Source of the DNA: an uncultured Gammaproteobacteria bacterium
GTDB taxonomy: Bacteria; Patescibacteriota; Patescibacteriia; Patescibacteriales; GWC2-42-12
NCBI GenBank assembly: GCA_964560005.1
Contig: CAZLKB010000001.1
Location: forward strand, 77,079-141,078
Direction of reading: 5' to 3'
Length of the DNA stretch: 64,000 nucleotides
Part shown: positions 6,156 to 63,143 of the stretch, in pieces
Layout: every line of letters begins with the position of its first letter
How positions within the stretch are numbered: the first letter of the stretch is position 1
Position numbers and translations under genes: made by a program
The notes under the pieces: model-generated
The model's input: only the letters and a program-made list of their open reading frames with translations
Database searches by the model: none
Told to the model about the DNA's origin: nothing

Positions 6156-6239
6156 AATGCGAATACTACAAAAAATATCCAAATACTACAAAAAGTAATT
6201 TATTCGTAGTATTCGCATATCATTTGTAGTATTTGGATT
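6156..6239. repeat. Four-box TACTACAAA module
   Basis: Two direct boxes (GCGAATACTACAAA, TCCAAATACTACAAA) are followed by two inverted boxes in the same order. It ends 9 nt before the ATG at 6248. Confidence 0.6.
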
Positions 6240-11944: not shown

Positions 11945-12118
11945 GCCGGGTGAAGTAGTTCATTTTGAGAGGCTCCTCGGTGCTTCTCTCGATGCCGAAA
12001 CAGCTAAACTGGGGCGAAATTGTAGTAATTTTTTGGAATTATCCGATCTGTGTTTGTCGGATAATTCCAAAAAATACCCAAATTTCGTCTAAGCGAAAAA
12101 TAAACTACTTCACCCGGC
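11945..12118 (+). repeat. Structured element, type B, copy B2
   Basis: Arms GCCGGGTGAAGTAGTTCA / TAAACTACTTCACCCGGC. Core TTTTGAGAGGCTCC..internal hairpin GGAATTATCCGA..TCGGATAATTCC..AAATTTCGTCTAAGCGAAAAA. Confidence 0.7.
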
Positions 12119-13830: not shown

Positions 13831-13851
13831 AAATTAAAATTTAGCAGTTAG

Positions 13852-13999
13852 CTAAAACTAATTATTTTTGAAGTGAGGACTGTTCGAGCCACCGCCAGTT
13901 CATAATATTCACACCAAAACAAAGCGTAAAAAGGGATAAATAATCTTTAAATAGCTTTCTGAAAGCGAGTGCCGCAACGAGAAAATAATTAGTTTTAGT
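13852..13999 (+). repeat. Structured element, type A, copy A1
   Basis: Arms CTAAAACTAATTATT / AATAATTAGTTTTAG. Core TTTGAAGTGAGGACTGTTCGAGCCACCGCC..GCGAGTGCCGCAACGAGAAAA. The right arm covers the polA stop codon. Confidence 0.7.
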
Positions 14000-16817
14000 T
14001 AACTGCAATATTCTCCATCTCCCCCCAATTATCCCCCTGCTTGGCGTCAACCACAATCGGCACTTTTAATTTTATAACATCTTCCATAATCTTTTTAATC
14101 TTTTCTGATACTTCGACAACCAAACCATCTTTGACCTCAAACACTAACTCATCATGCACCTGCAGCAACATCCGCACTGGCGCAATTTCTGATCCGCGTT
14201 CCTTCGCGTATAATTCGCTTATCATTCGTGCTACCCTGATCATGGCTATCTTAATTATATCGGCCGCTGTTCCTTGAAGCGGCGTATTGATCGCCATTCG
14301 TTCGGCTGATTTGCGCGCCTGGATGGCCGAAGAGTCAATCTCGGGTAGAAATCTTCTCCGGCCGAACAGAGTTTCAGTATAGCCCTTGGTCCTGGCTAAC
14401 GCAATAGTTTCATCAACAAATTCTTTTACGCCGCTATAGGCGATAAAATATTTTTCTATAAAATCTTTAGCCCGAGCATAAGGAATCTCCGCGCCTTGCG
14501 ATAGCCCGTGCGGCCCTTGGCCGTATAAAATGCCGAAATTAACCGCTTTGGCTTCCCTCCTTAATTCCGGAGTCACTTCTTCTGGTTTGATTTGATTAAT
14601 CTCCGCGGCGGTGGCTGTGTGAATATCTTCGCCCTGCTTAAAAGCGGTAATCAGTTTCTTATCGCCCGACATATGAGCCGCTAACCGCAGCTCTATCTGG
14701 GAATAATCAAGCGATAATAATTTATAACCCTGATCGGCCACGAACGCCCGCCTGATCCTCTTGCCCAATTCAGTCCTAATCGGAATATTCTGTAAATTCG
14801 GTTCGGTTGATGACAACCGCCCGGTAGCGGTTACGGCCTGATTAAAACTGGTATGCAACCGACCGGTTTTTAGATTAACCAGCTTTGGTAGAGACTCTAT
14901 GTAGGTCGTTGATAGTTTTGTCAGCTCGCGGTAGTCCTGGATTAAATCAATAATCGGATGCTGGCCTTTAAGCTTGGCTAACTCATCGGCCCCGGTAGAT
15001 AAGCCGGTTTTACCCTTGCTAATGCCAAGAGCCGGAATAGCCAATTTTTCAAACAAAATTTCGCGGAGTTGCTGGGTGGAATTTATGTTAAAATCCGAGC
15101 CGGCTAAATCATGAATCTTTTTTTCCAGCAAATGTATTTTTTTATCAACTTCGCGGCCGATATCGGCTAAAAATTCTTTATCAATTTTTATGCCGTTTAT
15201 TTCCATGACGGTTAGCACTAAAACCAAAGGCATTTCAATTTCGTAAAATAATTTATCAATCTTTTGTTTTTTTAATTCCGGCACTAATTTTTTTATTAAA
15301 CGATTGGTGAAGTCCGCGTCCTCGCAGGAATAATTATATAGTTTTTCCACCGCTACCTGGCTAAAACTGATTTTATCTTTGCCTCTGCCCAGTAAATCCT
15401 CTTTGGTAATTTTTTGATGATTAAAATAATTAAAAGTTACGGCATCTAAATTATGCTGGCGGCTGCCCGGATTAAGGAGGTACGAAGCTACCATGGAATC
15501 GGCCGCTACGCCTCTTACTATAACGCCTTGGCTGGCCATCACCTCAAGATCATATTTAATATTGTGCCCATACTTTTTTATTTTCTCATTCTCCATTATC
15601 GGCTTCAGCCTCTCCAGCCAAGCGTTACCGGCTTTTTTCTTATTCTGATAATCAAACAAATTACTTCTTGCTTCTGACTTCTTACTTCTAACTTCCAAAT
15701 AATAGGCTTCACCCGCCTGCCAGGAAAAACTTATACCTAAGAGCTCGGTATTGATCGGATCAAAATTCGCCGTTTCAGTGTCAAAGGTAAATTCCTTTTG
15801 CTTAGCCAGGGCTTTGAAAAAACTATTGAATTTTTTTTCACTATCCACCAGCTGGTAAGCAAATGATTCTAGATTTCTTTTGAATTTATCCTCTGCTTCA
15901 TAGTCTGGTTTTTTCTCTAAAGACTTTTTGGCGTCTTGCGCTAGGCCTTGCAGCCTGGGCAGGAGAGACTTGAAGTCCAGTTCATTAAACAGTTTTCCTA
16001 ATTTTTCCTGATCAAATTGGCCGAAACGCGCGTTTTTCAAATCAAAGTCAATTTCAGCATCGCGTTTTATAGTCGCTAAATCCTTACTCATGTAAGCATT
16101 GTCTTTATATTGAATTAGCAGTTCACGAATGCGATCTCTAATCTTGCCGGATTTAATGTTCAGGTAGACATTATCCAAAGTCTTAAAAGCTTGCAGCAGT
16201 TCAATCGCCGTCTTTTCGCCGATGCCCTTAACTCCGGGAATATTATCCGAAGGGTCGCCGCGCAAGGCTTTAAAATCAATCATCTGCCCGGGCTCAAGCC
16301 CGTATCTTTGCTTGACCGCCTTTTCGTCGTATATCATGGAGTCGGTTAAGCCGCGCTTCATGGTATAGACCTTGGTATGACCGTTAATCAACTGCAGAGT
16401 GTCCATATCGCCGGTAACAATAATTTTTTCAACCGCGCCGTCAACCAGACTGGCTAAAGTGCCGATTAGATCATCGGCTTCAAATCCGGCCAATTCAAAA
16501 ATCGGAATATTAAAGCCTCTGGCGATTTCCTTAACGCGGGGAATTTGCGCATACAATTCATCCGGCGCCTTGACTCTGGTGGCTTTATAGCCGGCGAATT
16601 GCTTATGGCGAAATGTCTTTTCCTTTCTATCTAAAGTTAAAACCACATATTCCGGTTTAAACTCGCGCAAAGCCTTTATTAGAACCGAGGTAAAGCCATA
16701 AACCGCGTTTATAATTTCGCCGGTCTTAGTGGTTAAGGGCGGCAAAGCGTGAAAACTCCGATGGATCAGCGCATTGCCGTCAATAATCATTAATGTTTCT
16801 TTTTGTTGTTTACTCAT
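13995..16817 (-). CDS. polA: DNA polymerase I
   Basis: 940 aa with 5'-3' exonuclease, 3'-5' exonuclease-like and family A polymerase domains (RRxAKxxNFGxxYG, QVHDELVFE). Confidence 0.95.
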   Translation of the reverse strand: MSKQQKETLMIIDGNALIHRSFHALPPLTTKTGEIINAVYGFTSVLIKALREFKPEYVVLTLDRKEKTFRHKQFAGYKATRVKAPDELYAQIPRVKEIARGFNIPIFELAGFEADDLIGTLASLVDGAVEKIIVTGDMDTLQLINGHTKVYTMKRGLTDSMIYDEKAVKQRYGLEPGQMIDFKALRGDPSDNIPGVKGIGEKTAIELLQAFKTLDNVYLNIKSGKIRDRIRELLIQYKDNAYMSKDLATIKRDAEIDFDLKNARFGQFDQEKLGKLFNELDFKSLLPRLQGLAQDAKKSLEKKPDYEAEDKFKRNLESFAYQLVDSEKKFNSFFKALAKQKEFTFDTETANFDPINTELLGISFSWQAGEAYYLEVRSKKSEARSNLFDYQNKKKAGNAWLERLKPIMENEKIKKYGHNIKYDLEVMASQGVIVRGVAADSMVASYLLNPGSRQHNLDAVTFNYFNHQKITKEDLLGRGKDKISFSQVAVEKLYNYSCEDADFTNRLIKKLVPELKKQKIDKLFYEIEMPLVLVLTVMEINGIKIDKEFLADIGREVDKKIHLLEKKIHDLAGSDFNINSTQQLREILFEKLAIPALGISKGKTGLSTGADELAKLKGQHPIIDLIQDYRELTKLSTTYIESLPKLVNLKTGRLHTSFNQAVTATGRLSSTEPNLQNIPIRTELGKRIRRAFVADQGYKLLSLDYSQIELRLAAHMSGDKKLITAFKQGEDIHTATAAEINQIKPEEVTPELRREAKAVNFGILYGQGPHGLSQGAEIPYARAKDFIEKYFIAYSGVKEFVDETIALARTKGYTETLFGRRRFLPEIDSSAIQARKSAERMAINTPLQGTAADIIKIAMIRVARMISELYAKERGSEIAPVRMLLQVHDELVFEVKDGLVVEVSEKIKKIMEDVIKLKVPIVVDAKQGDNWGEMENIAVN

Positions 16818-26836: not shown

Positions 26837-27307
26837 CTATTTTTTACGATTTCTGCCGCGATGCGTTGGTTTTAAACTATGGCAATTGGGACAAAGGATT
26901 CTTAAATTTTCTATTCTATTGTCGCGACTATCGCCATTTATATGATCGAGCTCTAACGGCAAACGCCCATCTGGTGAAACCCTTGCCCAACCACATTCTT
27001 CGCATCTAGGCAATTTTAATTTCTCTTTATATAATCTTTTCTTTAACTTATAGCTTTGAAAATTACTACCTTTGACCAATATTTTATCTAATGCAATTCT
27101 CGGGCTGCTAAAACCTGTTAATCCTTTGTTCCAGCCACGCCCTTTAAGATGGCTCGTATTTATTTTGAAAATAACCAAATATTTTTTTATTTGATTGTAA
27201 TTTCCACCAGCTAGTTTAAGCCCAAGTAATTTTAATACTTGTCTAACGCTGGTTGATTTTTTAACCGCTTCTTTTAACTGCCGTTCGGTCCAACTTTTTG
27301 TTCTCAT
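26837..27307 (-). CDS. HNH endonuclease
   Basis: C-terminal LELDHINGDSRDNRIENLRILCPNCH. Start moved from TTG to the ATG at 27307. The stop lies 3 nt before the tRNA-Leu(TAA) 5' end. Confidence 0.8.
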   Translation of the reverse strand: MRTKSWTERQLKEAVKKSTSVRQVLKLLGLKLAGGNYNQIKKYLVIFKINTSHLKGRGWNKGLTGFSSPRIALDKILVKGSNFQSYKLKKRLYKEKLKLPRCEECGWARVSPDGRLPLELDHINGDSRDNRIENLRILCPNCHSLKPTHRGRNRKK

Positions 27308-27390
27308 ATATAATATTATATCATAATGGTAATGATATAACAATATACATACTAATACGTATACCTGTTCTATCTTTTCAATAAGTCGAG

Positions 27391-27770
27391 TGGAGATGAG
27401 GGGAATTGAACCCCTGTCTAATAAACTTCTTAAAGCATATTTACAGATTAGATCGATTTGTTTTCTCGCTACCGCCGTAAAAACCGAACAAAATCGGCCG
27501 TAGCAGAGCTTATTTTTTAAGATAACCGATAAAGCGATCGATTATTCGAGCCTATGATTTTACACTCGTATCCGGCGTATAGGCGTCAGCCGGGCGAATG
27601 GTTGCGGCTATTAAGCGGCAACAGGGGCAAAGGCCGGCATTTTCCAAGAAAATGTCGCTTTGCTCAATAAGTTTTTGACACTTATTATTTTCGAGCGCGA
27701 TTAAAGTGACGGCTCGAGACGCACTCCTGAATGCTTTAAAAAAATTTTATTATCGATGCCTAGCATCCCC
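27391..27770 (-). ncRNA. ssrA: tmRNA (SsrA)
   Basis: The 5' GGGGATG pairs with the 3' CATCTCC (G3:U70). T-arm AGGGG-TTCAATT-CCCCT. The internal tag frame ends ..PAFAPVAA then TAA TAG (27608-27658). smpB is adjacent. Confidence 0.85.
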
Positions 27771-30959: not shown

Positions 30960-31021
30960 AAAACAAGTTTTCAAATTTATCCGCTACTATCATTTATAAC
31001 ATATACCTACCATTAACTCAT

Positions 31022-31074
31022 GGATTGCGGGTCCCATACCTACCGGCAGGCAGGAAGCCCGCAATGACAAAAAA
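31022..31074 (+). repeat. GC-rich hairpin repeat (GGATTGCGGG..CCCGCAATGACAAAAAA)
   Basis: Plus-strand orientation, in tandem with the next copy. Confidence 0.55.
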
Positions 31075-31077
31075 TTC

Positions 31078-31132
31078 TGGATTCCCGCCTTCCCTCGGCA
31101 GGCTCGGGACAGGTCGCGGGAATGACAAAAAA
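31078..31132 (+). repeat. GC-rich hairpin repeat, long form (GGATTCCCGCC..GCGGGAATGACAAAAAA)
   Basis: Ends 10 nt before the 5' arm of element A2. Confidence 0.55.
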
Positions 31133-31142
31133 GTACAGTAAG

Positions 31143-31304
31143 CAGTGGGGTGAAATATGTTATTTTTTGAAACGAGGATTGTTTGAGCCACCACCAATTA
31201 ATGCAATTCACACCTAATAGTCTTTATAGCCACTGACAGTTTTATTTAAGCTAACATCTGGCGAGTGCCGCAGTGAAAAAAATTACATATTTCACCCCAC
31301 TGCC
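31143..31304 (+). repeat. Structured element, type A, copy A2
   Basis: Arms GCAGTGGGGTGAAATATGTTA / ATTACATATTTCACCCCACTGC. Core TTTTTTGAAACGAGGATTGTTTGAGCCACCACC..GGCGAGTGCCGCAGTGAAAAAA. Confidence 0.7.
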
Positions 31305-34887: not shown

Positions 34888-34930
34888 ATTGTTTTGATAA
34901 TTTATTAATTTATTACTCAACTTATTATAT

Positions 34931-35008
34931 AATCCAAATACTACAAAAATTATCCGAATATTACAAATACTTTTTGTAGTATTTGAATAATTTTTGTAGT
35001 ATTCGCAT
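34931..35008. repeat. Four-box TACTACAAA module
   Basis: TCCAAATACTAC, CCGAATATTAC, GTAGTATTTGA, GTAGTATTCGC. It lies 44 nt upstream of the nusA ATG. Confidence 0.6.
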
Positions 35009-35165
35009 TATACTAAAGAAAAAGGCTAGTTTGAATTTAATCAACTAGCCTTAGTATCTATATACTAGCATTATATAATATAGAAGTCAACAATTTTTTT
35101 CCCCCTTAATAAAAGGGAATGAAGGGAGATTTATGCCTTCTAATTCAAGTTAAAATAAAATATAT

Positions 35166-36005: not shown

Positions 36006-36148
36006 GGCAATCGGGGGAAAATTTGTTTTGAGCGCATACAAAATTGTATTATTTTTTCTTAAAATTATCCAGACCAATTTAATAAAATTTTAAGAAAAAA
36101 TACACAAATTTTGTCGTAAGCGAAAAACAATTTTTTCCACCGATTGTC
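36006..36148 (+). repeat. Structured element, type B, copy B3
   Basis: Arms GGCAATCGGGGGAAAATTTG / CAATTTTTTCCACCGATTGTC. Core TTTTGAGCGCATACAAAATTGTA..ACAAATTTTGTCGTAAGCGAAAAA. Confidence 0.7.
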
Positions 36149-37180: not shown

Positions 37181-37193
37181 ATTTTTACTAGTT

Positions 37194-37339
37194 GGCATGG
37201 GGAGGGCGGGCATTTTAAGTGAATACAAAATTGTATTATTTTTTTATTAAAATTGCTCATAATATAAATATATAGACAATTTTAATAAAAAAATACTCAA
37301 ATTTTGTCCTGAACGAAAAATGCCCGCCCTTCCCATGCC
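37194..37339 (+). repeat. Structured element, type B, copy B4
   Basis: Arms GGCATGGGGAGGGCGGGCA / TGCCCGCCCTTCCCATGCC. Core TTTTAAGTGAATACAAAATTGTA..CAAATTTTGTCCTGAACGAAAAA. An orphan 3' core follows at 37340-37364. Confidence 0.7.
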
Positions 37340-37385
37340 AAATTTCGTCTTAAGCGAGAAAAAGACCTATTTGTCCCGCAACGGT

Positions 37386-39984: not shown

Positions 39985-40167
39985 AAGGGAGTCTAAAATA
40001 TTTAATTTTTGAAGTGAGGACTGTTTGAGCCCCCACCATTTTTTCTCCTTATGGCCCAAACTATTAGAAATTTCAATTTTTTATATTTATTTTACTTTTA
40101 CATGAGTACTTAAAAAATGGTGTGGGCGAGTTCCGCAACGAAAAAATTAATTATTTTAGACTCCCTT
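39985..40167 (+). repeat. Structured element, type A, copy A3
   Basis: Arms AAGGGAGTCTAAAATATTTAA / TTAATTATTTTAGACTCCCTT. Core TTTTTGAAGTGAGGACTGTTTGAGCCCCCACC..GGTGTGGGCGAGTTCCGCAACGAAAAAA. Confidence 0.7.
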
Positions 40168-47765: not shown

Positions 47766-47820
47766 AGGTTGAAAAGTTAATTTACATTTATTATAAATTG
47801 TGCTAATTGCAGAGGTAAAG

Positions 47821-47916
47821 TTTTGGCTAAATTTATTTATTTTTGAAGCGAGGACTGACCGGCCGGCACATAATGAATTTGATCCGCAGCGAAAAAATAA
47901 ATGAATTTAGCCAAAA
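47821..47916 (+). repeat. Structured element, type A, minimal copy A4
   Basis: Arms TTTTGGCTAAATTTATTTAT / ATAAATGAATTTAGCCAAAA. Core TTTTGAAGCGAGGACTGACCGGCCGGCAC..GATCCGCAGCGAAAAAA. Confidence 0.7.
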
Positions 47917-47961
47917 CTATAATCATCAGCTAACACAATCCATATTTATATTATACCATTA

Positions 47962-60266: not shown

Positions 60267-60818
60267 TTAAAAACTTTTTTTCTCATACTTCCATTCTATA
60301 ACATCATTATTTTTTAATTTATAATATGACACGCCGACTTGAGCCGGTTGGCCGTTAACATAATATAGCCAATTTTTACCGGCCGGGTCATTCTTAACGC
60401 CATTAATTTCTTCAATGAAAAACCCCAGTCTGGAATAATCACGACTCTTAAAATCAATTTTATTCTGCTCTTTTAACAACCGCATTAAATCATAGACCGT
60501 GCTATCCGGGGAAACTTGCGCTTCATATTTAACTCCGCTGATTGCTAGATTGGCTAAAATTTTCTTGTTCGGCTCGGACGCCGGAGCTTTGGCTTGGTCC
60601 TGATTTAGCGCTCGTTCATTTTCTTGAGCCGCCTGCTCAGCCGATTTAGTAATGATTTTAGCCTGATTAAGCGCATTTGCTAAACCGCCGGGCGCGTCAT
60701 TACCGGCCAAGGACATTAAACCTACTTCACTGTTTGTCAAATGCTTCACGGTTGAAACGCCAACCCAGGCTAATAGCAGAAAAACTAAAAAAAATATGGC
60801 TAAATTTTTTACTTTCAT
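60267..60818 (-). CDS. Membrane-anchored DUF4430-domain protein (transcobalamin beta-domain-like)
   Basis: C-terminal TVYDLMRLL..GFFIEEINGVKNDPAGKNWLYYVNGQPAQVGVSYYKLKNNDVIEWKY. Start taken at the ATG at 60818. The upstream ATG at 60836 lies inside a repeat. Confidence 0.7.
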   Translation of the reverse strand: MKVKNLAIFFLVFLLLAWVGVSTVKHLTNSEVGLMSLAGNDAPGGLANALNQAKIITKSAEQAAQENERALNQDQAKAPASEPNKKILANLAISGVKYEAQVSPDSTVYDLMRLLKEQNKIDFKSRDYSRLGFFIEEINGVKNDPAGKNWLYYVNGQPAQVGVSYYKLKNNDVIEWKYEKKSF

Positions 60819-60831
60819 ATAATCTATCGCC

Positions 60832-60856
60832 GTCATCCCCGCGAAAGCGGGGATCC
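60832..60856 (-). repeat. GC-rich hairpin repeat, short form (GGATCCCCGCTTTCGCGGGGATGAC)
   Basis: 7-bp stem TCCCCGC/GCGGGGA. Overlaps the longer track ORF start. Confidence 0.55.
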
Positions 60857-60960
60857 AGAAATGCTTAATTACGAAAAACCCGCCCTGCTTCGAGCGGATC
60901 CGATAAATTTAACATTATTAAATTTATTTTCTTTGCTCGAAGAATAACTATATAAGTTAG

Positions 60961-61052
60961 TTATCAGCGTTCTGGCTTGTTCCCCCACCATCTTGGTGAA
61001 GGACATTACAGTTGCGGCACAGCGCCGGGTTTACACCGGACTTTCCTGATAA
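60961..61052 (-). promoter_or_regulatory. Cobalamin riboswitch-like aptamer (compact form)
   Basis: Minus strand: P1 TTATCAG/CTGATAA. Core GGAAAGTCCGGTGTAAACCCGGCGCTGTGCCGCAACTGTAA and B12-box-like AAGCCAGAACGCTG. Confidence 0.7.
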
Positions 61053-61068
61053 CTATTGTTGTTTCTAT

Positions 61069-61096
61069 ATTATATAACTTTTGTAGAAAGAGTCAA
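61069..61096 (-). promoter_or_regulatory. Canonical sigma70-type promoter for the riboswitch operon
   Basis: On the minus strand: TTGACT (rc 61091-61096), 16 nt, TATAAT (rc 61069-61074). The predicted start is about 10 nt before P1. Confidence 0.5.
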
Positions 61097-61100
61097 TCAG

Positions 61101-61172
61101 TACGCCCAGGGGGAATCGAACCCTCATATCCAGCTTAGAAGGCTGGTGTTCTATCCATTGAACTATGGGCGC
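61101..61172 (-). tRNA. tRNA-Arg(TCT)
   Basis: Acceptor GCGCCCA/TGGGCGT (G1.U72), loop CTTCTAA, T-arm GAGGG-TTCGATT-CCCCC with one mismatch. Confidence 0.8.
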
Positions 61173-62348: not shown

Positions 62349-62488
62349 GCCGGACAAAGGTTTTAGTTTTGAGCGGCTCCTCTGTGCTTTCCTCGGAGCT
62401 AAAAAGGGGACGAGGGAGAAATTGTTGCATTTTTTAATTAAAAATGCCCAAATTTCGTCTAAGCGAAAAACTAAAACCTTTGTCCGGC
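62349..62488 (+). repeat. Structured element, type B, copy B5
   Basis: Arms GCCGGACAAAGGTTTTAG / CTAAAACCTTTGTCCGGC. Core TTTTGAGCGGCTCC..AAATTTCGTCTAAGCGAAAAA. Confidence 0.7.
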
Positions 62489-62639: not shown

Positions 62640-63050
62640 ATGTTAGATAGAAAAGCCAAGCAAAAAATCATTAATCGGTTCAAGGTTCATGAAACCGATA
62701 CCGGCTCATCGCAAGTGCAGATCGCCATTTTAACCGAAGAAATCAAGCAGTTAAGCAATCATTTAAAGAACCACAAAAACGACCATTCTTCCAGGCGCGG
62801 ACTGTTAAAAAAAGTCAGCGAAAGAAGGCGCTTATTAAAATATTTGCAAAAAGAAGACGGCAAGGCCTTTGACGAACTGGCAAAGAATTTAAAATTGAAA
62901 ATTGCCAAAAAAATGATTGAAGATGAAGAAGCTAGGCAAAAAATTGAAGATGAAATTATCGCCAAACAGGAATTAAAAGCCGAAGCGGCCGAAGCGGCCG
63001 AAGAAGAGAGAGTAAAGGCTGACCATAAAAACAAAGAGGATGAAGAATAA
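62640..63050 (+). CDS. rpsO: 30S ribosomal protein S15 with a 45-aa Glu/Lys/Ala-rich C-terminal extension
   Basis: HETDTGSSQVQIAILTEEIKQLSNHLKNHKNDHSSRRGLLK. Confidence 0.9.
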   Translation: MLDRKAKQKIINRFKVHETDTGSSQVQIAILTEEIKQLSNHLKNHKNDHSSRRGLLKKVSERRRLLKYLQKEDGKAFDELAKNLKLKIAKKMIEDEEARQKIEDEIIAKQELKAEAAEAAEEERVKADHKNKEDEE

Positions 63051-63056
63051 CAATAT

Positions 63057-63143
63057 AATCCAAATACTACAAAAAGTACGCGAATACTACAAATGTTTTA
63101 GAATTATTTCGTAGTATTTGGATATAATTTGTAGTATTCGCAT
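63057..63143. repeat. Four-box TACTACAAA module
   Basis: ATCCAAATACTACA, GCGAATACTACAAAT, CGTAGTATTTGGAT, ATTTGTAGTATTCGC. It ends 9 nt before the ATG at 63152. Confidence 0.6.

Follow-up and report, generated by a model that had tools for sequence, protein, structure and literature searches.

A 64-kb stretch of DNA from an uncultured bacterium (contig CAZLKB010000001.1; hereafter the window, to which all coordinates refer) contains four copies of type A, a structured element that we describe as a widespread, previously uncatalogued hairpin repeat of Parcubacteria-group bacteria of the candidate phyla radiation (CPR; Falkowbacteria and relatives). Type A is an insertional mobile repeat and not a fixed gene, and its core strand lies antisense to the neighboring genes; both properties had escaped an earlier interpretation of the window based on its letters alone (the sequence-only reading). 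We tentatively interpret type A as a mobile hairpin repeat whose core may work as a folded single strand, with RNA more likely than single-stranded DNA (ssDNA). Loci outside the window, mostly metagenome contigs, are designated by L-numbers (L001 and so on).

The sequence-only reading had placed four type A copies on the + strand, and the 5′ core TTTTGAARYGAGGAYTG was indeed found as an exact match at 13866, 31165, 40007 and 47841 (copies A1 to A4), the only four exact matches in the window, with none on the − strand. The 3′ core GAGTKCCGCARYGARAAAA was exact in A1–A3 and had three mismatches in A4, and the observed count of five GAGTKCCGCARYGARAAAA matches was reached in 0 of 100 shuffles. 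These pattern matches bore out the core sequences proposed for both sides; all four copies were present, with boundaries that moved by 1–8 nt on refinement. A full covariance-model scan detected no copy beyond A1–A4 in the window. Each window copy is closed by an inverted repeat of 26–38 nt, and the + strand folding z-scores of A1–A4 ranged from −5.5 to −7.7 relative to shuffled sequence. A1 (13844–14006, +), identified by its core matches and a model score of 77.3 bits, has an 86-nt-class apical domain, and its 3′ arm overlaps the stop codon of the polA open reading frame (ORF; 13995–16817, −). A3 (39985–40167, +; 79 bits) belongs to a 107-nt apical class with a 16-bp CCCCCACCA/UGGUGUGGG stem and the conserved AUGKCCCAA loop motif, and A4 (47819–47918, +; 75.1 bits) is a short variant without the UUUGA..GAG junction, of a kind that recurs at L022:2017–2123.

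The layout of the element can be followed in A2 (31142–31303, +). The 5′ arm of its outer stem P1 (GCAGTGGGGTGAAATATGTTATTTTTT; 31142–31168, +), recognized as part of an inverted repeat, ends in an invariant T-run, and the 3′ arm (31277–31303, +) begins with an invariant A-run; the two arms pair with a single U.U mismatch. The 5′ core (31169–31186, +; an exact pattern match) consists of the GAA loop, AC (covarying P2), G, A, GGAT (P3), TG, a TTT bulge and GA, and its columns were invariant or nearly so in alignments of 34 and of 82 sequences. An apical variable domain of the 84–88 nt class, opened by GCC/GGC, follows (31187–31262, +), and the 3′ core (31263–31276, +) reads GA-G, T, GCC (P3), G, C, a bulged A, GT (P2) and GA.

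Across copies, P1 is 22–27 bp long, drifts in sequence yet stays paired and ends in the invariant U5/A5 run; the minimal form of the whole element is ~90 nt (for example, in L050). The core, 5′ UUUUU-GAA-RY-G-A-GGAY-UG-UUU-GA with 3′ GA-G-U-UCC-G-C-(A)-RY-GA-AAAAA, is almost invariant and asymmetric. Inward from P1, a 5′ GAA/3′ GA loop is followed by two covarying P2 pairs, then by a G–C pair with a bulged A, an A.G opposition and GGAY paired with G(U)UCC, and the innermost part of the core comprises UG, a UUU bulge and GA...GA around a covarying helix that leads into the terminal loop. The core therefore holds two tandem-GA junctions, of which the inner one is kink-turn (k-turn)-like. The purine-rich GAA/GA(A) internal loop of the sequence-only reading is present, with a size of 3 × 2 (5′ GAA/3′ GA) and not 3 × 3. 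The second junction, UGAG...CGAG, appeared as described, followed by 2, 3 and ~16 pairs in A1, A2 and A3, respectively; A4 lacks it, as does L022:2017. The arms, which had been called unique to each copy yet complementary, are paired but represent diverged forms of a loose consensus, GCAGTTGGCTAAAATTAGTAATTTTT.

The apical module is exchangeable and measures from 3 to ~110 nt, the smallest being a 2-bp helix with a triloop. One class of 84–88 nt (A1, A2, L003, L007, L049 and others) has a conserved length and the short motifs AGCTA and TTTA; no consensus secondary structure was found for this class. Another of 107–108 nt (A3, L001, L006, L012 and others) combines a 16-bp stem with a loop in which the motif AUGUCCCAA is conserved. 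This motif opens non-conserved mini-ORFs of 10–20 codons in A3 and in the apical domains of L012, L034, L094, L105 and L111, and AAGGAG-N5-ATG occurs on the opposite strand of some domains of the 107-nt class. Neither the stops nor the Shine-Dalgarno sequences of such mini-ORFs were conserved on either strand, and we rejected them as coding sequences.

Covariation supports the predicted fold. As the sequence-only reading had noticed, the two inner pairs are GU/AC in A1 and A3, AC/GU in A2 and GC/GC in A4. RNAalifold predicted 32 pairs in 34 short forms, 23 of them with double-sided changes, and a covariance model built from these short forms recovered 83 sense-strand copies, including six found by the model alone. 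Among 82 distinct copies, 95.6% of the pair cells were paired, compared with 71.6% when partners were shuffled (none of 500 shuffles reached the observed level) and 33–52% when partners were slid; the pairs contained 592 double-sided changes, and the two P2 pairs were distributed as GC69/AU7/GU6 and CG38/UA37/UG2. The alignment behind these figures had been fitted to the model, and a pattern had been used to pick the 5′ core, an ascertainment that does not extend to the 3′ core, the stems or the six model-only copies. The claim of a conserved covarying structure held when the sample was widened from the window to the 82 copies.

The mismatches in the stems indicate which strand is under constraint. 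Read on the core-sense strand, and counted over copies irrespective of their relatedness, the isolated mismatches of the outer stem were of the G.U type in 48 cases (31 without the loop-adjacent position) versus 14 of the A.C type. Compared with the gene strand, the element strand is rich in C, and gene-strand deamination bias would be expected to yield the opposite of this G.U excess. Moreover, the GA/GA junctions are purine-rich only on the + (core-sense) strand. On these grounds, the strand under constraint is the + strand, as named in the sequence-only reading.

We examined how far type A extends beyond the window. The combined 5′ and 3′ core pattern recovered six true copies in metagenome-assembled genomes (MAGs) of the Falkowbacteria, the Parcubacteria group and the Patescibacteria group, together with one chance match, and a metagenome scan with the 5′ core alone gave at least 120 groundwater contigs among the matches listed. 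In nearly all complete metagenome matches, which yielded 68–71 distinct sequences, the 5′ core was accompanied by the 3′ core GAGUUCCGCARYGA and a paired outer stem, neither of which had been searched for, indicating that type A is more than a chance pattern. The closest named relatives of the pyrophosphatase encoded in the window are in Parcubacteria-group and Falkowbacteria MAGs. IMG/VR viral contigs contained zero true copies, and a phage origin was rejected on this basis. No Rfam 15 family matched type A at gathering thresholds or relaxed E-values; the hammerhead, twister, hatchet, pistol, HDV, 6S, Y RNA and signal recognition particle (SRP) models did not reach the gathering threshold, and the sub-threshold matches were generic precursor microRNA (pre-miRNA) hairpins only, on both strands. 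This agrees with the novelty that had been claimed for the element, and no description of type A was found in the literature.

Comparisons between related loci revealed that type A is mobile. In three syntenic loci totaling 66 kb, picked via the pyrophosphatase and not via the repeat, we found 0, 0 and 1 strong copies, whereas the matching part of the window holds A2, A3 and three copies of type B, a related family described below. The site directly downstream of the pyrophosphatase stop is occupied by the long form of type A (A2) in the window, by a short form of type A with different P2 pairs and a compensated stem in L099, by type B in L131 and by other repeats only in L129, while L130 has a 17-nt spacer and no element. 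In one metagenome lineage, stem-plus-core segments of 97 nt were 99–100% identical at different loci, and truncated and nested copies also exist. In that same metagenome lineage, the element is surrounded by an extra outer shell, consisting of 13-bp terminal inverted repeats (TIRs; CAGGACTTACGCG/CGCGTAAGTCCTG) and an asymmetric loop; exact AT-rich direct repeats of 5–7 bp lie on both sides of 12 of the 15 copies with a shell, where the null gave a mean of 1.5 and a maximum of 6. Given these TIRs and target site duplications (TSDs), the shell-type elements of this lineage are miniature inverted-repeat transposable elements (MITEs), and type A as a whole is, like MITEs, small, noncoding, multi-copy and insertion-polymorphic.

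Conversely, the 52 copies without a shell, including A1, A2 and A4, showed no excess of TSDs at the stem base, and no TIRs or other outer inverted repeats were found in the window copies or the others of these 52, so both were rejected as features of the window copies. No TIR pair lay 0.6–3 kb apart in ~0.9 Mb of fetched loci, as an autonomous insertion sequence would have; this search covered the fetched loci and not whole genomes. We also rejected insertion of the core into a pre-existing palindrome: ~1 Mb contained no empty arm-palindromes, and thus the arms belong to the element; the single "solo shell" (L112:2020–2092) looks like a deletion derivative. The shell-type loci are L016, L017, L018, L020, L027, L030, L031, L050, L053 and L112. 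About half of the shell copies have the core turned around with respect to the asymmetric shell, as if it flipped between the 23–26 bp arms, and L014 has two partial copies, the break in one of them falling exactly between TTTTT and GAA. An invertible switch between L020 and L027 was rejected, as these are different loci with only ~190 bp in common; the inversion relative to the shell is seen in paralogues, and five near-identical contigs from different samples had one orientation only.

These signs of mobility raise the question of whether type A is a purely selfish palindromic MITE, in which the identity of the core and the pairing of the arms would stem from recent spread, gene conversion and arm-to-arm correction. 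The TIRs and TSDs, the bursts of identical copies, the truncated and nested copies and the strong differences in copy number between relatives are what this explanation predicts, and the inner 97 nt being more alike than the outer shell fits conversion. It accounts poorly for what happens over longer times. Three pairs of orthologous loci, whose flanking proteins are 64–84% identical, have kept the element; their arms differ at 6–14 of 26 positions and are still paired, the core is unchanged, and in A2 and its ortholog in L099 the P2 pairs have changed (AC/GU versus GU/AC). Near-invariance of the core thus extends across many genomes and includes old orthologous sites with up to 50% change in the arms, and the window copies have intact stems and neither TIR nor TSD. 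The G.U excess, too, is strand-specific and opposite to the expected deamination bias, and the core is strongly orientation-biased, which the asymmetric shell is not. We consider a purely selfish palindrome quite unlikely.

The orientation bias is evident from the gene context. Copies are always intergenic, usually 5–40 nt from ORF ends, and with the core taken as +, the flanking genes were (−,−) at 34 loci, (+,+) at 5, (+,−) at 5 and (−,+) at 1; that is, the core strand is antisense to the neighboring genes in 34/45 cases. Cores of the shell lineage point either way within the shell yet are antisense to genes in both cases, and thus the orientation rule concerns the core and not the transposon shell. 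Next to the 3′ end of a radical-SAM gene (70% identity), L037 carries the core in the sense orientation and L044 in the antisense one.

Since the elements lie 5–40 nt from ORF ends between co-directional genes, their gene-strand version is transcribed wherever the operons are, and type A could instead be a cis-acting hairpin of operon mRNA (gene strand, − in the window), serving as an intercistronic RNase III site or a 3′ stabilizer in the manner of REP/BIME, ERIC and Correia elements. A stem of ~26 bp forms on either strand, with a minimum free energy of −31 to −54 kcal/mol on the − strand. On the gene strand, however, the G.U pairs become C.A mismatches and the GA/GA junctions become U.C/C.U; a plain hairpin would not need an invariant asymmetric core; and no U-run follows the hairpin on either strand. 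This role is therefore improbable. Taken together, the mRNA hairpin, the selfish palindrome and the ribozyme considered below are less likely than a folded single strand of RNA or ssDNA.

Scans for transcription signals were largely negative. Upstream of the copies, no conserved promoter motif was found (<0.5 bit per position); a scan for sigma-70 sites and terminators gave a sigma-70-like site only at A1, at chance level, and no terminator-like site at any copy. Of 67 copies, 8 had a T-run within 12 nt after the stem on the + strand and 9 on the − strand, and an intrinsic terminator was rejected because no U-run directly follows the stem on either strand. An independent small RNA (sRNA) gene was likewise rejected, as there is neither a promoter at a fixed distance nor a terminator. 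The genes beside the copies are diverse, without an enriched protein family, and those in the window are housekeeping genes (murD-like, polA, holA, tig, smpB, nusA, H+-PPase, RNase J and IF3), so that an associated protein family for type A was also rejected.

In place of RNA, the structure might be one of ssDNA, an alternative that the sequence-only reading had also named: the + strand hairpin would be the substrate of a recombinase or an HUH/Y1-type enzyme, in the manner of integron attC sites, REPINs or IS200/IS605 ends, and copies would survive mainly where the active strand is the rarely exposed leading-strand template. Presence or absence and swapping of types at one site would suit such an element, as would the lack of promoter and terminator, the occurrence of inverted cores, both within the outer shell and at one gene end, and the orientation bias common to types A and B, with a negative GC skew of the element strand in 58 of 68 loci. 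The variable terminal structure and the bulged bases recall attC, and the minimal forms have GNA triloops closed by C–G, which we take to be unusually stable in DNA. Against this stand the use of double-stranded TIRs and TSDs by the sole visible mobility mechanism, for which the core is not needed, the lack of an integrase, Y1 or HUH gene among 30 window ORFs scanned and of an enriched neighbor family, the absence of R′/R″ boxes and the housekeeping nature of the flanking genes; furthermore, silent recombination sites would not readily account for long-term persistence at orthologous positions with the core under constraint. We regard an ssDNA structure as a serious though unlikely rival.

We return to the folded single strand of RNA as the tentatively preferred interpretation. 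If the core does work as a folded single strand, RNA is slightly favored over ssDNA, both because the visible mobility uses double-stranded TIRs and does not need the core and because helices bracketed by GA with a 3-nt bulge are typical protein-binding motifs of RNA. In such a mechanism, it would be the strand opposite to the operons that folds and whose core is recognized in single-stranded form; with no promoter or terminator belonging to the element, antisense transcription or read-through would have to supply the + strand RNA. The core might then serve as a recognition module for a trans-acting factor, such as a binder of tandem-GA or k-turn structures, and/or RNase III might act on the ~26-bp stem; the sense orientation would be selected against, as it would place the active fold inside operon mRNAs.

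Several observations weigh against this interpretation. The + strand RNA is hypothetical because no conserved promoter was found, and no partner protein was found, the neighboring genes being diverse and housekeeping. The G.U excess includes related copies, and the apical stems showed no G.U bias (4 versus 3) and are uninformative. Gene direction and replication direction are confounded in the GC skew, and the orientation bias could be linked to replication. The GAA/GA loop is not essential, because a subfamily (L041:1232, L021:6112, L084:3262 and L131:5494) has a C–G pair and a 2 × 1 loop in its place. Finally, the commonest minimal apical hairpins, GCGAAGC, GCGTAGC and GCGCAGC, have no predicted RNA fold; hairpins of the GCGAAGC type presumably correspond to the exceptionally stable mini-hairpins of DNA, which favors ssDNA.

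The concentration of ~25 invariant nucleotides in the internal loops and junctions of a rod-like fold would also suit a small self-cleaving ribozyme carried by the repeat, whose sense orientation would be avoided since it would cut operon mRNAs. The association with mobile repeats and the strong antisense bias are in keeping with this idea, and, as no known ribozyme model matched, it would be a new class. Nevertheless, neither a pseudoknot nor tertiary covariation was detected, another structure can take the place of the GAA/GA loop, and the unrelated core of type B obeys the same orientation rule, making self-cleavage very improbable.

Type B is a second widespread hairpin-repeat family, with a different core in the same kind of vehicle and the same orientation rule. 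The relationship between the two types suggested in the sequence-only reading proved sound: both are built as an arm, TTTT, a GA-loop core, AAAA and an arm, and their cores differ. The type B consensus runs from one arm through TTTT, GAGCGCATACRAAATTGT, an AT-rich hairpin, CCAAATTTYGTC(G)TAAGCGA and AAAA to the other arm, its core also being given as GAGCGCATACRAAATTGT ... CAAATTTYGTC(G)TAAGCGA, and the internal covariation is of G/A with C/T. The window copies, all on the + strand, are B1 (11945–12118; inverted repeat and core), B2 (37192–37341, followed by a partial type B 3′ half at ~37339–37365), B3 (62349–62488) and B4 (36008–36146; core GAGCGCATACAAAATTGT ... CAAATTTTGTCGTAAGCGA), the last of which had been overlooked previously. 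An additional domain, which could form a pseudoknot, is inserted into B1 and B3. Outside the window, type B was found in L037, L073, L080, L091, L102 and L131 (12031–12096 and ~1222–1333), and its flanking genes were (−,−) in 7/10 cases. As L131 illustrates, type B can sit at the same site as type A; the L131 arms were rejected as orthologs of the A2 arms, since their similarity was no better than that to unrelated copies.

A bolder and rather doubtful extension, to which we give no more weight than to ssDNA, would treat A and B as two cores of a CPR-specific RNA system in one vehicle with a long stem, a U5/A5 run and a GA junction. Such a vehicle would display exchangeable apical modules alongside either a k-turn-like handle for proteins or a new self-cleaving core, would be spread through streamlined genomes by MITE-type transposition and would lie antisense to operons because the folded RNA is active, through binding of a dedicated protein, processing similar to that of pre-miRNA or short hairpin RNA (shRNA), or self-cleavage.

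Other repeats and features of the window were also recorded. Two GC-hairpin/GACAAAAA repeats (31020–31075 and 31080–31132, +) lie upstream of A2, and the sequence-only reading had considered these GACAAA repeats a possible promoter. We rejected this role, as they form a separate family that is dispersed on both strands: such repeats (reverse complement TTTTTGTCATTCCCGCG...CGGGAATCC) also occur at ~497, 9191 and 30170 and, outside the window, in L010, L035, L046, L056, L099, L129 and L131. The same GC-hairpin repeat precedes the orthologous elements in L099 and L131. GC-hairpin repeats cluster in the same intergenic hot spots as type A and, in L056, one is nested in a type A apical domain. Inverted repeats of AATACTACAAAAA/TTTTTGTAGTATT make up a third family of hairpin repeats, located at 6157–6218, 34928–35012 and 63042–63139.

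The repeats mark the edges of variable gene islets. The segment 29833–31316 places a methyltransferase, a MazG-like ORF, A2 and the two GC hairpins between the pyrophosphatase gene and tig, which are adjacent in L130 (11992–12010), and A3 borders a block of two + strand ORFs and a flavodoxin that is missing from L129 and L130. The window also contains a small HNH endonuclease ORF (26837–27343, −) between a tRNA cluster and the transfer-messenger RNA (tmRNA) gene (27388–27770), and an adenosylcobalamin (AdoCbl) riboswitch (60919–61072, −; score 52.4 against the Rfam gathering score of 50) that adjoins tRNA-Arg (61100–61172) and lies upstream of ORF 60267–60836.

CPR/Patescibacteria bacteria have tiny genomes with very short intergenic regions, and the 64-kb window holds ~8 copies of two related hairpin families. 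In type A the usual logic of bacterial repeats is inverted, with variable ends and an invariant center. Clean compensatory changes are seen between orthologous sites, and a strict rule ties the core strand to gene direction; these features point to an unrecognized strand-specific interaction, either between RNA and protein or between ssDNA and an enzyme, in an uncultivated phylum. Should the core prove to be an RNA handle or a ribozyme, type A would be a new class of noncoding RNA, of which hundreds of natural variants are already at hand for structural studies; should it act on DNA instead, it would represent a novel sort of structured element, serving recombination or oriented by replication. 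Either way, type A is useful for marking the variable gene islets of Falkowbacteria-like genomes and is a candidate entry for Rfam or ISfinder.

Lastly, we compared type A with known systems. In TIGR-Tas of CPR bacteria, a tandem stem array lies next to a Tas gene with a Nop domain, and dual spacers are flanked by box C/D motifs (PMC12045711). Type A copies are solitary and dispersed, and no Nop-domain ORF was present among those scanned, and a relation to this system was rejected. The inner junction of type A, consisting of a stem, the UUU bulge, GA, a covarying helix and GA, has the layout of a k-turn as in Kt-7, box C/D and L7Ae/YbxF sites, and a second GA/GA loop closes the outer stem. A k-turn has tandem sheared G.A/A.G pairs beside a 3-nt bulge, which is abutted by a Watson–Crick C-stem. 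Unlike in k-turns, the pair next to the 3-nt bulge is G.G unless the loop is 5 nt, and the noncanonical (NC) helix can be as short as 2 bp with a triloop; because the GA and UUU columns are all invariant, covariation does not decide the pairing at the bulge.

At the DNA level, attC sites resemble type A in being imperfect palindromes between genes that keep their structure rather than their arm sequence, and in having bulged bases, a variable terminal structure and a folding strand antisense to genes; unlike attC, type A has a 45-nt core of invariant sequence. attC sites carry R″ (RYYYAAC) and R′ (GTTRRRY) boxes at their base and belong to cassette arrays with adjacent intI/attI. In type A the arm consensus places GTTGGC on the 5′ side and GCCAAC on the 3′ side, which reverses the attC arrangement, and it is not conserved; with these boxes and attI absent, no integrase in the ORFs scanned and housekeeping neighbors, an integron attC was rejected.

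REPINs consist of two conserved REP units, which have a conserved 5′ tetranucleotide, around a variable spacer and go with a RAYT transposase gene in the genome, and REP/REPIN elements share with type A their nature as intergenic hairpins that persist vertically with compensatory stem changes. In type A, by contrast, the arms drift and the spacer, here the core, is conserved; there is no GTAG-type REP head, and no RAYT was present among the ORFs scanned, a search limited to the 64-kb window. The Correia elements of Neisseria, ERIC/IRU of enterobacteria and BOX/RUP of pneumococci are small (90–200 bp), noncoding, multi-copy and intergenic, often inside operons. Like type A, they form long hairpins and vary in presence or absence between relatives, and the modular interior of type A is BOX-like. 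Such MITE-like repeats conserve their ends, whereas type A conserves its center and has variable arms; most type A copies, including all four in the window, are without TIR and TSD; and its core is strand-specific and strongly antisense, with no cognate transposase in the fetched loci. MITE-like palindromic repeats and k-turn-containing RNAs are thus far the nearest known relatives in kind; the inverted pattern of conservation, the two interchangeable cores and the strict strand rule together set type A apart from a plain member of such groups.

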